Source: a virus (taxonomy: Duplodnaviria > Heunggongvirae > Uroviricota > Caudoviricetes). Taken from it: DNA of 35,426 nt. Positions 31,501 to 35,426 of the stretch are shown piece by piece. Within the stretch, counting starts at the first letter, position 1. Each line of letters begins with the position of its first letter. A program made the position numbers. The stretch is from IMG/VR virus record IMGVR_UViG_2609460354_000004, positions 1 to 35,426 of that record; one strand, 5' to 3'.

Positions 31501-34500
31501 ATGACCATGAAGTAATTCCTTTCATTGAATCATGCCTTATTAAAATCAGAATTTTTATTATCGAAGCCTATAATGAGTTAGATAAGATTTGAATTACCCC
31601 CTAAACACCACAGCAAGTGGGAATTAACCACCCTATATTAAATATCCCTTTGTGAATGTGTTAAAGCTTATCGTCACAAAGGGATGCCCATTATTAATCT
31701 CACTAGGCAATGAATTTCTAATATTAAATTTCATCGCCAGATTTTAAATTTCCTGCAACCTTACTGGCCATGCTCAGATGGTCTGTAACGCAACTCATCA
31801 ATTTCACGAATACTCGAAAAATTATTATTTCCTTTTTCTATCAACGCCAGTAGCGGCTTAATCCACAAGACAGCTTGGCAGTAGGTCATTGAGCTGGTGG
31901 TAGCGGTACGATCATAGGCTTCATTAGGTCTGCCGGTATCGGTGTGCATGGCGCTGGCACGTAAACGGTACGTGTATTCGAGCAACCCACCAGCGATATC
32001 AGCAGGAACAGGCAGATCACAGGTTTTTTCACGGCGGAGAATCTCCCGGTATTCGATTACGGTTTTTTCGGTGCTGGTGTCGATCAGGGAGTTAAGACTG
32101 TTGGCATGTTCTGCAACCTGATTGAATCGATTGAAGTTGAATGCCTGGGTGGCGATTACCTGCCCCAGCATAGAGTTGTCACTTCGCAGAACGTCGTTAT
32201 CGCTCTGAAGATTACTGGCGTGAGAGCAACTCTTGACGAGAGCGACCGAAAGGCCAGCAATAACGACAACGCCTATAAGATCCGGATTAATTTTCATTGC
32301 TCCAGCCCCCAGCACGCCAGTGCGCTTTCCTGATCGCGCCGCTCGACCTGCCCATAACAGCCATTCTTCTGCCCTTTTGTCAGGCGGCAATCACGCCCAC
32401 CATCTTTTATCCACCAGCGAATCGCCTCGCATGCCCCCTTACGATCATCGGCATTCAGCCGCTTATAAAACGTCGACGGGAAACACTTACCGGGGCCAAT
32501 GTTATAGGGACAAAATGACGCTATACCCGCTTTCTGTGGTTCGGTCAGTGGCACTTTAATATTGCGCTCCACCCATGCCAGCGCCTTATCCCGTTCAATG
32601 GCGTTAACCTGGTCGCATTTTTCCTTCGACAGTTTCATACCGGGAAAAACGGGTTTTCCATCCACCACCGTGGCACCCCGACAGATGGTCCAGATGCCGG
32701 AACCATCGCGGTATGCCGTTGTGTGGTTACCTTCTTTTTCATTCAGAAACTGGTCGAGAATATCAGGCGCAGGCGCACCGACGGCAATCAGTGCCAGAAC
32801 GGCAGCCGACAGGCCGTATCTGATTTTTACGTTCATGGATATTTATCAGGATTTATCGGTTTCTGAACCCTGGATATGTTTATCTGTCCCGGCCTGTTGA
32901 ATCAGGCAAGGAATAGTTAAATACAATAGAGAGGATTGTTTATGGACAATAGCACCATTTCTCTACAGGAGTTGCTCGACTGCATTTCCAAGCTTCGGGA
33001 TGATGTAAATGCCCTTACTGTCGCATTTTCATATCTGGCATTCTCAATTCCCAAGGAACAAATGCAACCAACACTGGCATCGCTCCAGCTTGAATCACTC
33101 AACCCCAAATGGTCCCAGCAACAACAAAATTCTTTCAAGTGGCTGGCGGTATTACTGGAAGAAAAATATGCTGGTGAAATTACCATTTCGGCGGAGTCTT
33201 CAGAGAACCAGTAATTCTTCCCGGTAGCTTTCCTTTGTAGGTTATCCACACATTCTGCGCCTCTAAAATTATGGGGCGCTTTTCCGGCGACAGCTCATCC
33301 CCTTCACATAACCCGGCAGCAACATCCAGGAAGACCTGTCTGATGCTCCTTCTGGCTGCTGCCTCATAAAACTCCAGCGCGGCACCTTCAACACGGTCCA
33401 GCGAGATGTCCAGGTCAAAAATTTCACCGTCAAAGCGTTCTTTGTCCCGTAACGCTAAAGTTACCGTAACTTTATTCTCAAAATTGCGGATCCCTTTCAC
33501 AATCAGTTCATATTTTTGAGTCATTGAATTACTCTCCCCGTGCAGCCTTACGCTTGTCTTCTTTAATCTTGAAATAAAGGTTTGTCAGGTACGTCAGCAG
33601 GCCAAATACCAGGCTACCCAGCACACCTATTGCTGCCCACTGTGAGGGCGTGACTTTATCGAGCAGCTGTAAAAACCAGTAGCCAGCACTGCCTGCGGAG
33701 GTGCCGTAGGCAATGCCTGTTGAAATTTTGTCCATGGATTTCATAGCCTCACCTCCGCACGGAACGGATGGCATAGTTATTATGTGTAGGCTTCCAGACA
33801 CATCAATCAGAGCCTTAATTGATATATATGCTGGAGACGATGCAATATAAAAAGCTCGCCGTAGCGAGCTAATAAAATGTATTTCTCTGATATTATGTTT
33901 ATTTGTATTAGCTCAGACTTGACATCACAGGTTTCGTATATAGAACATCATCAAATCTGTCAGTTTGCTATGAATGAGATATAGTAATTGAAGAGCTAAC
34001 CTCGCATGTCAAAGCCAGATTTCTGAAAATCTCTGTAGACTTCCGGATTGTTGAAGGCCGGAAATTTGGCTTTATGAGCTGCGGACTTTATCGCTTCGCA
34101 ATAGGCTTTATCACCGTTACTGGTAGATATTTTTAACGCCGTGCCATCCTGAGAGAATTCCATATGCAACCTGCATTTTTTCCCTTTCCAGTTATGCGGC
34201 TCATCAAGTTTGGCATTAATTGCAGCTCTGATTCCCCGCGCTTGCGCCCCCCATTCATCCTGATCATCCCAGCGTCCTGAACTGCAACTACCTGTAGCAG
34301 TAGTTTTGTGGCAATCTGAAGGGTGTAAAGGTGTGCATCCCGCAACAAAACCGACCCAAAAAGTCAACATAACGATTTTCTTTAATCCCACTTCTTGCTC
34401 CTCAATCCATTAAAATCTCAGCAATAGTAGTTGTTACGTCCGCCACTGGCTCAGAGCTGACTATCCGCTAAATTTAGCTCAGTGCCGTAGTTGTGTCAGA

Positions 34501-35426
34501 ACAAACCTAAGCCGAAACCGTTTATTACAAAACAATAAATATCAGGGTTTAAAATCCAGCACCCCATTTTGAAATACTTTATATACTTCCGGCGAAGGGG
34601 GGGCAGGTATATCAGCATTCTTTATCGCATTCATCGCTTCACGACATAAATCGAGGTCTCCACTTTCTCTTTTAACCTCCAGTAGAAGGCCATTCGGGGC
34701 CATATGCATTCTCAGTGTACACTCTTTTCCTGAATACTTACTCGCATCCCCGAACTGTTTTTCGATGGCGCTCTTGATTTGATGGGCATACAGACGGATA
34801 TCCTCACTAACATCAGAAGTACGTTCAGATGAACTCACATACTGTGTCTCTATTGCTTTATCGGAGTAATATGATGTACGGTCATGATAATTTGTCGATA
34901 CAGCATCAGTGCACCCGATAATAATCCCACTAATAATCAACGTAAGAATTGATGCGCTACGAAAACCCATTTTTCCTCACATATGTCATATAGTAAAGGA
35001 TTATATATACCGTTGTTTTGGAGGCTCAAACAGCGAATCAGATCAAATAAAACGCACATTTGTTAACATTTACACAAAGTCTGCGTGGGATATTCTGAAA
35101 GAATATCCATAATGTGGAGAGAATCTATTGAAGTGCATGGTGCCGGGTGCCTCCCGGTGAATTCAGTACCAGCACCTGAATCCGCGATTATCCCATATAC
35201 CTACTCGCTGATTGCCCCTCCGCACAGGGGGATTCACCATGCCAGTTTCTTTTAACAAACTCCCCGCAAACCAGAGAACAGTCAACCGCCTGAATTGTGA
35301 AGTATTTAAAAATCTCTCCCGCTAACTGATACCCGGCTAACAGTCTGGCGTTTTCTTTTTCAGCAACGGGAAAGCAACAACCACCACACCCGCCACCAGC
35401 ACACCGTCAGCCAGCACTGACATTAT

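Follow-up and report, generated by a model that had tools for sequence, protein, structure and literature searches.

The window analysed here, 35,426 nucleotides of viral DNA (positions 1 to 35,426 of IMG/VR record IMGVR_UViG_2609460354_000004), is a lambda-like prophage of Escherichia coli and carries on its minus strand two small neighbouring genes, called A and B in the following, which combine predicted lipoprotein signals with a C-terminal domain like that of the cell envelope protein TolA. Gene A (34542..34970, minus strand) starts with ATG, is preceded at a distance of 4 nt by the Shine-Dalgarno sequence GAGG, and encodes a putative lipoprotein precursor of 142 amino acids (aa) composed of a signal peptide, a disordered linker and a TolA domain III (TolAIII). 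Gene B (33996..34391, minus strand) starts with GTG, has the Shine-Dalgarno sequence GAGGAG 6 nt 5' of it, and encodes a putative lipoprotein precursor of 131 aa with a signal peptide, a Cys-loop segment and a divergent TolAIII. A first-pass annotation of this DNA had placed two paralogous lipoproteins at 33996-34970; the limits of the two open reading frames (ORFs) coincide exactly with these positions, and the deduced proteins are indeed paralogues, with 29% identity (E 2e-18).

In order to recognize substrates of signal peptidase II, we used the combination of a positively charged n-region, a hydrophobic h-region and a lipobox of the form [LVI][ASTVI][GAS]C. In the translated product of A, signal peptide and lipobox occupy residues 1-20 (34911..34970, minus strand), where the N-terminus MGFRSASILTLIISGIIIG is followed by Cys20 and where the n-region is MGFR, the h-region SILTLIISGI and the lipobox IIGC, with predicted cleavage between IIG and C. 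Similarly, in the product of B, read from its GTG start, residues 1-19 (34335..34391, minus strand) consist of MGLKKIVMLTFWVGFVAG followed by Cys19, with MGLKK as n-region, IVMLTFWVGF as h-region and VAGC as lipobox, to be cleaved between VAG and C. Across four families, represented by 18 aligned sequences, the lipobox Cys does not vary, and the KK of the n-region of B is kept in its homologues. According to the '+2 rule' of the E. coli Lol system, lipoproteins without Asp at position +2 go to the outer membrane, and since A and B both have Thr, not Asp, at this position, sorting to the outer membrane is predicted for the two proteins. Judged from these signals, A and B are probably lipid-anchored at the outer membrane.

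The first-pass annotation had also noted that the C-terminal regions resemble TolA's C-terminal domain, and profile searches, alignments and structure prediction all bear this out. Pfam family PF06519 (TolA_C) has a gathering score of 25 bits, and both A (82.6 bits, E 2.4e-23) and B (54.6 bits, E 1.3e-14) are members. In phmmer searches against PDB sequences, residues 55-142 of A align end to end with residues 334-421 of E. coli TolA (E 5e-28) and residues 50-129 of B align with E. coli TolAIII (E 5e-9); over TolA 334-421, 52 of the 88 residues are identical in A and 27 of 88 in B. AlphaFold2 models of A and B have a predicted local distance difference test (pLDDT) value above 90 throughout the domain and below 50 for the N-terminal 30-50 residues. 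The domain of A comprises residues 54-142 (34545..34811, minus strand), and that of B residues 45-131 (33999..34259, minus strand). When superimposed by Foldseek, the model of A fits the TolAIII structure 2x9a_B with a template modelling (TM) score of 0.96 and a root-mean-square deviation (rmsd) of 0.6 Å over 88 columns, and the model of B fits the TolAIII structure 3qdp with a TM score of 0.92 and an rmsd of 1.1 Å over 86 columns. The top matches of both models were all E. coli TolAIII, and TonB C-terminal domains appeared as distant matches only. A Cys pair equivalent to C363/C388 of E. coli TolA aligns in A, in B and in every relative examined, and a disulfide is predicted for it. By profile, alignment and model, the C-terminal 88 or so residues of A and of B are a complete TolA domain III.

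Clearly, A and B are not TolA, since the transmembrane domain I and the helical domain II are absent from both, as follows from their lengths (142 and 131 aa versus 421 aa for TolA) and from the NCBIfam profiles. The NCBIfam models for full-length TolA (NF007065 and TIGR02794) match with their C-terminal end only, at profile positions of about 265-387, so that no more than the final 80-120 positions are covered. With scores of 107.8 for A and 53.7 for B, neither protein reaches the NF007065 cutoff of 213, and both fail to qualify as full-length TolA. The TIGR02794 cutoff of 59.45 is exceeded by A (75.6), which accounts for the misleading database name 'TolA'. The earlier suggestion that a lipobox stands in place of the membrane and helical domains of TolA agrees with the lipobox Cys and with the lack of domains I and II.

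Many database records call both proteins 'cell envelope integrity protein TolA', and in the region of E. coli O111:H21 strain 15A equivalent to 33996-34802 of the window, the Prokaryotic Genome Annotation Pipeline (PGAP) annotates A as a pseudogene ('tolA, incomplete, missing N-terminus') and sets the start of B at Met8, whereby its n-region is lost. What such a label implies is that A and B are non-functional debris, i.e. fragments of a captured tolA, and the confinement of the full-length TolA matches to the C-terminal ends would fit this. We consider this explanation very improbable, as the ORFs are intact and equipped with Shine-Dalgarno sites and with new N-terminal lipoprotein signals that are absent from tolA, and as A-type alleles with identities of 65-91% keep frame and lipobox. 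Ratios of nonsynonymous to synonymous substitution rates (dN/dS), obtained as Nei-Gojobori estimates, also speak against decay, with values of 0.06-0.25 for the domains. For the domain of A, dN/dS was 0.09 versus a 91%-identical allele and 0.25 versus a 66%-identical allele, whereas the linker of A was relaxed (0.48-0.57). For the domain of B, values of 0.06-0.10 were obtained versus plasmid and chromosomal homologues. Both A and B are under purifying selection. Furthermore, TolAIII of E. coli and that of Klebsiella are 91% identical, whereas the identity of the lipoprotein-TolAIII proteins to host TolAIII amounts to 31-59%, far under the identity between orthologues, which rules out a recent capture from the host tolA and indicates old independent lineages instead of recent fragments. 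The PGAP pseudogene call for A is wrong, contradicted by frame conservation and dN/dS, and the PGAP annotations of A and B mask the lipoprotein signals and conflict with the selection data.

The segment of B between signal peptide and domain (residues 20-44; 34260..34334, minus strand), TPLHPSDCHKTTATGSCSSGRWDDQ, contains two extra Cys residues, C27 and C36. Model confidence is low here; this segment does not behave like a loose tether and, according to the substitution pattern, is constrained as much as the domain or more: its dN/dS is at most 0.10 and falls to 0.00-0.01 versus the copies of Klebsiella and Serratia (dS 1.7-2.4), and C27 and C36 are invariant even in clusters with only 26-58% identity.

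The A-B module is present in 775 of 5426 complete E. coli genomes (about 14%) when at least 80% of the query has to be covered, and the exact protein sequences of A and of B each occur on at least 1000 contigs. Among IMG/VR viral contigs with room downstream, the order A, B, holin gene, with a constant distance from A to B, is seen in 76 of 77, and in the remaining one B lies about 1.3 kb further downstream. A scan of IMG/VR for diverse viral relatives recovered near-identical copies of the A-B module only.

More distant relatives were obtained by an exhaustive profile search of 1.84 billion cluster representatives, which gave 619 clusters at E ≤1e-3. The best 150 of these 619 representatives include 80 complete proteins with a length of 100-199 aa; in 59 of these 80, a hydrophobic stretch precedes a lipobox, and ordinary signal peptides are seen in several of the rest. 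In other lambdoid prophages, A-type alleles with 65-91% identity are found alone between Q and the holin gene, with different neighbours, and in a prophage of Salmonella a version of 146 aa with the lipobox MTGC is encoded about 1 kb upstream of the holin gene. Homologues of B with 78-89% identity occur in Citrobacter, Enterobacter, Serratia, Klebsiella and Raoultella. A B-type gene is also present on 607 plasmids of E. coli and Shigella, including pO157 and the IncK2/Z conjugative plasmids; its product is 88% identical to B both on pO157 (Sakai), a virulence plasmid of EHEC, where the gene lies upstream of toxB, and on I-complex IncK2/Z conjugative plasmids (e.g. pSH287-2), where relaxase gene and trbC flank it. 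About 380 ColRNAI plasmids of K. pneumoniae (approximately 10-12 kb) encode a 123-aa lipoprotein-TolAIII (lipobox LTAC), whose gene is directly followed by that of a 121-aa TonB_C protein with a signal peptide, beside an operon for a cloacin-like bacteriocin, immunity and lysis; in K. pneumoniae plasmid p69-3 (NZ_CP025459.1, approximately 10 kb), the lipoprotein-TolAIII gene overlaps the gene for the secreted TonB_C protein by 4 nt. A second type (144 aa, lipobox ITAC) is found on about 320 larger plasmids, mostly of Klebsiella. In three cluster representatives, TonB_C and TolA_C are fused in one lipoprotein; one of these fusions (209 aa, GCA_018423075.1) is encoded in the nin region of a lambdoid prophage, between O/P and NinG/Q, and the other two are on short contigs. 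Lipoprotein-TolAIII proteins are a large and common class carried on mobile elements. The pairing of A with B is not obligatory, for there are solitary A-type genes in other prophages and solitary B-type genes on plasmids and chromosomes. PHROGs holds both A and B in phrog_5772, with the description 'unknown function'.

Two candidates for further relatives were discarded. A mention of 'TolA' for the ciprofloxacin-induced prophage gene EDL933_2012 concerns a gene listed as tail fibre protein, and proteins K and L of CloDF13 do not form a plasmid-borne TolA/TonB-like pair, as the corresponding slot of CloDF13 is occupied by a different lipoprotein ('protein K') without resemblance to TolA. On the chromosome of Serratia marcescens, a B-type gene has, directly downstream, genes for a member of the GmrSD_N family and for a HEPN-domain protein, a neighbourhood that looks like a defence island.

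In the prophage, 1.4 kb around A-B match phage mEp460_ev081 with 99.9% identity and the prophage in E. coli O111:H21 strain 15A with 100%. In both of these, the order of genes is Q, tRNA-Ile, tRNA-Arg, a DUF3927 gene, A, B, holin, a DUF1327/YdfR gene and lysozyme, and the lysis region of the window comprises holin, DUF1327, lysozyme and an Rz-like spanin. The position upstream of the lysis cassette that had been assigned to the pair is correct, for A and B come after Q, the tRNA genes and the DUF3927 gene and directly before the holin gene. The order of genes from Q to holin places A-B in the slot that stx occupies in Stx phages, within the Q-dependent late operon. A consensus scan detected a sigma-70 promoter-like site (TTGAGC-18-TATAAT, 10 of 12 matches) at 35000..35029 on the minus strand, 30-60 nt upstream of A, and a weaker one (CTGACA-17-TAAATT, 9 of 12) between A and B at 34471..34499 on the same strand. 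The site before A has one change (TGTAAT) in the 91%-identical allele of other prophages, and the sequence upstream of distant alleles is unrelated. Between B and the holin gene, a scan found a hairpin resembling an intrinsic terminator (AGCTCGC-TACG-GCGAGCT, then the T-run TTTTTATATTG; 33843..33870, minus strand), the sole such site in 33500-35426. The GC content of the A-B module is 0.39-0.47 versus about 0.5 in the lysis genes, and the module is missing from most related phages in the phage collection. With its candidate promoter, its candidate terminator, its lower GC content and its variable presence, A-B appears as a moron-like unit. No structured RNA was found in the A-B intergenic region (z -0.44). 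A full-length match to the Rfam small RNA STnc100 (114 bits, E 2e-24) is located at 35081-35271 on the minus strand, the same strand as A; it ends about 110 nt upstream of the start codon of A, just upstream of the promoter-like site, and Stx phages without A-B have part of this sequence as well, at a conservation of 97-100%.

This location, directly upstream of the lysis cassette in the late operon, and in the stx slot, is what would be expected if A and B were envelope modulators, an explanation that we consider unlikely. Here, the TolAIII heads would titrate the N-terminus of TolB or another TolA partner and partly disable Tol-Pal, with a looser outer membrane, vesiculation or leakage and an easier release of phage, toxins or bacteriocins, or an easier assembly of conjugation machinery, as the outcome. 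The TolAIII strand β3, which TolB uses, is retained in A, tol mutants hypervesiculate, and modulation of the TolB interaction has been proposed in a review as a control of outer-membrane vesicle formation (PMC7391070); moreover, a bacteriocin release operon and conjugation genes are among the neighbours of relatives of A and B. However, holin, lysozyme and the Rz-like spanin are already there to breach the outer membrane, and the terminator-like hairpin parts B from the holin gene. As TolAIII and TolB bind with a dissociation constant (Kd) of only 40-200 μM (PMC7391070), titration would require high expression. Also, the pairing or fusion with a TonB C-terminal domain has no clear part in envelope loosening, and the chromosomal sites of B-type genes are unrelated to lysis or secretion.

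The ligands of TolAIII bind at mapped surfaces, which can be compared with A and B. The g3p N1 domain of filamentous phages (g3p-N1), colicin N (ColN) and the N-terminus of TolB each add a β-strand to strand β3 of TolAIII (A415-K420), an addition for which hydrogen bonds of the backbone at D418 and K420 are mainly responsible; helix α2 (334-349) makes an additional contact with g3p, and a strand of colicin A (ColA) joins the opposite side of TolAIII, at 375-LLDIKP-380 (PMC4339652; PMC7391070). Affinities differ, as TolAIII and TolB interact weakly (Kd 40-200 μM; PMC7391070) and colicin N is bound at about 1 μM (PMC4339652). In the alignment, β3 of A (TolA 412-420) reads FQNGVLDFK, with 6 of 9 residues identical, with L-D-F-K retained and without proline; 11 of 16 residues of helix α2 are identical, and the ColA box LLDIKP is LLEVKR in A (3 of 6 identical). 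For B, identity to TolA amounts to 4 of 16 in α2, 2 of 9 in β3 (FDMR) and 2 of 6 in the ColA box. By this comparison, the mapped g3p/ColN/TolB and ColA surfaces are retained in A only, B being divergent at all three, and B probably has another specificity. In the two plasmid families, β3 is identical to that of TolA at 8 of 9 and 6 of 9 residues, versus 48% and 43% identity overall. The best structural match of A, 2X9A, is the TolAIII complex for filamentous phage IF1.

The divergence of B, together with its strongly constrained extra Cys-loop segment, which is absent from TolA, and its movement independently of A across plasmids and chromosomes, would suit a different target. The TolAIII fold would then serve as a generic module for β-strand addition, most likely so in B, and would bind a ligand unrelated to Tol-dependent import, such as an outer-membrane receptor or a periplasmic protein that competing tailed phages need, in a block like that exerted by Cor or Llp. 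Prophage-encoded outer-membrane lipoproteins that block receptors are well known, Cor being an example (PMC3594210). We attach a low probability to this alternative: a candidate ligand was not identified, the closeness of A to the host head (52 of 88 residues identical) points to TolA ligands, at least for A, and as strand addition is mostly a matter of backbone contacts (PMC4339652), even the divergence of B is compatible with TolA ligands.

The reading that we favour, at about even odds, is that A and B are uncoupled TolAIII decoys that capture TolA ligands; it draws on the architecture of the two proteins, the binding surfaces kept in A, the moron-like layout, the maintenance of both genes and the recurrence of the design on other mobile elements. 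In such a mechanism, A and B would be exported as lipoproteins, probably to the outer membrane, and each would carry, at the end of a tether of about 25-33 residues, a TolA domain III that is folded, disulfide-bonded and exposed to the periplasm. Without the TolA transmembrane helix and the helical domain II, these heads would not be coupled to the proton-driven TolQR motor. At the outer membrane, a head unable to pull would then capture ligands that dock on TolAIII by β-strand addition: group A colicins and klebicins through their translocation domains, g3p of filamentous phages through its N1 domain and, possibly, TolB through its N-terminus. Capture would occur where the epitopes of the invader emerge, and as the heads have no link to TolQR, import would come to a halt, leaving the lysogen tolerant. 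In this scheme A, like its plasmid and Salmonella counterparts, would be an uncoupled copy of the TolA head, A being a close mimic of that of the host, and B, with its different surfaces and its constrained Cys-loop segment, might extend or change the specificity. Levengood-Freyermuth, Click and Webster are said to have observed in 1993 that secreted TolAIII makes E. coli colicin-tolerant and leaky. In the converse arrangement, periplasmic g3p-N1 sequesters TolA and leads to colicin A resistance and to a 4-log drop in phage uptake (PMC10424213).

Several observations on the relatives favour the capture of import ligands. The occurrence of motorless heads of both energy transducers together on mobile elements fits better with import blocking than with a housekeeping role, and the function suggested by the first-pass annotation, i.e. 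periplasmic decoys for colicin or phage exclusion, or modulation of the envelope, gains plausibility from the TonB_C neighbour on bacteriocin plasmids, from the TonB_C-TolA_C fusions and from the I-complex conjugative plasmids. Carriage by conjugative plasmids supports import blocking, as pili attract those filamentous phages for which TolA serves as co-receptor. The difference between a Kd of 40-200 μM for TolB and of about 1 μM for colicin N means that a decoy could favour invaders over TolB. Whether the putative decoys match TolA of their own host genus is uninformative, given the 91% identity between TolAIII of E. coli and Klebsiella. Tentatively, and with less confidence than for A and B themselves, we propose that motorless TolA/TonB heads, i.e. 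TolAIII alone, paired or fused with TonB_C, might be a widespread undescribed form of broad-spectrum entry immunity on mobile elements, which would act against Tol- and Ton-dependent bacteriocins and pilus-specific filamentous phages in that the translocation epitope is captured at the outer membrane, and of which the prophage A-B pair would be a two-specificity example.

Some observations weigh against a decoy function. All three mapped ligand surfaces have diverged in B. As A-B sit in the Q-dependent late operon, their expression may fall mainly into lytic growth, a phase in which colicin tolerance would be of little use; promoter-like sites in the region are about as frequent as in shuffled sequence (7 versus 4.7 expected), and promoter and terminator are consensus matches only. 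A decoy that binds TolB could harm Tol-Pal function. Single chromosomal B-type genes in Enterobacter and K. oxytoca have no obvious mobile context. Searches with the PADLOC-DB defence models gave no match for A or B at E ≤0.01, and no study of these genes was found in the full-text literature on prophage- or plasmid-encoded TolA-like lipoproteins, where earlier work in subscription journals is possible.

Compared with E. coli TolAIII (PDB 1TOL, 2X9A, 3QDP/3QDR, 1S62), A and B are alike in fold, in homologous sequence and in the putative disulfide pair, and A has in addition kept β3 and α2, as used by g3p, ColN and TolB. In contrast to E. coli TolA, they lack domain I, which contacts TolQR, and domain II; they are predicted to be lipid-anchored, would be unable to transmit the proton-motive force, and are encoded by a prophage and not in the tol-pal operon. 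In being small phage-encoded lipoproteins predicted at the periplasmic face of the outer membrane, A and B would be analogous to Cor (phages phi80, N15, HK022 and mEp167) and Llp (T5), described as phage outer-membrane lipoproteins that inactivate FhuA (PMC3594210; Llp, 10.64898/2026.03.26.714494); Cor protects against phages and colicin M (PMC3594210). Homology between Cor or Llp and A or B is not apparent, no direct comparison having been run; the only assignment given by Pfam, PHROG and NCBIfam for A and B is TolA_C/phrog_5772. Unlike Cor and Llp, which block one receptor, A and B would mimic a shared hub of import in the periplasm. Exclusion by filamentous-phage pIII/g3p involves the same TolAIII-g3p interface and has a documented outcome (PMC10424213), but it is the mirror image, as there the ligand of the invader masks the host head, whereas here a spare head would mask the ligand of the invader. 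The plasmid lipoprotein-TolAIII genes and PHROG 5772 share the architecture of A and B, with the B-type plasmid genes 88% identical to B, and differ in their neighbourhoods (TonB_C and bacteriocin operon; upstream of toxB; relaxase-trbC). Laboratory dominant negatives offer a further comparison: free secreted TolAIII or TonB C-terminal domain reportedly disturbs Tol- or Ton-dependent import (Levengood-Freyermuth et al. in 1993 and Howard et al. in 2001). Those constructs are artificial, soluble and overproduced, whereas A and B are natural, predicted to be lipid-anchored, selected and carried on mobile elements.

Elsewhere in the window, a 230-aa ORF lies on the plus strand at 30900-31592, downstream of the lysis cassette and opposite to the late genes, within an island that is very rich in AT (GC 0.32-0.35). 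It has no Pfam match and a full-length match to phrog_13652 (unknown function), and may be another moron, placed like bor of lambda. Also, the gene for the large terminase is split, the GpA ATPase and GpA nuclease domains being encoded by separate minus-strand ORFs about 10.8 kb apart (16904..18016 and 28839..29834). The inserted DNA (approximately 18017-28838) contains genes for a tyrosine integrase, an anti-repressor, a D5-type primase-helicase, a ClpP-protease/capsid fusion and a small terminase, as well as a repressor-like gene and a gene resembling that for single-stranded DNA-binding protein (SSB). Judged from this content, the insert in terL looks like a capsid-forming phage satellite of the phage-inducible chromosomal island (PICI) type. 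The junction is annotated likewise in E. coli O111:H21 15A, and no direct repeats of at least 14 nt (att) were found at the insert junctions.

The TolAIII fold and entry-blocking lipoproteins were already known, and in the literature searched we found no description of a natural, widespread decoy of an energy-transducer head on mobile elements. The identity of the domain is already visible in automated annotation, and it is the mechanism, with ligand binding and a protective phenotype, that we infer. The labels 'TolA' and 'tolA pseudogene' hide the lipoprotein signal and mislead annotation. The class extends over 775 of 5426 complete E. coli genomes, 607 plasmids of E. coli and Shigella and about 700 plasmids mostly of Klebsiella, i.e. 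more than 1,300 sequenced plasmids in all, and takes in pO157 and the bacteriocin and resistance plasmids of Klebsiella. If the decoy reading is true, a common class of accessory genes would explain part of the natural variation in sensitivity to colicins, klebicins and filamentous phages, which is now attributed to receptors and immunity proteins. This would be relevant to bacteriocin-based therapeutics, to competition in the gut and to conjugative plasmids, the pili of which make the host accessible to filamentous phages with TolA as co-receptor, and A and B would be natural, selected dominant-negative probes of force transduction through TolA, TolB and Pal.

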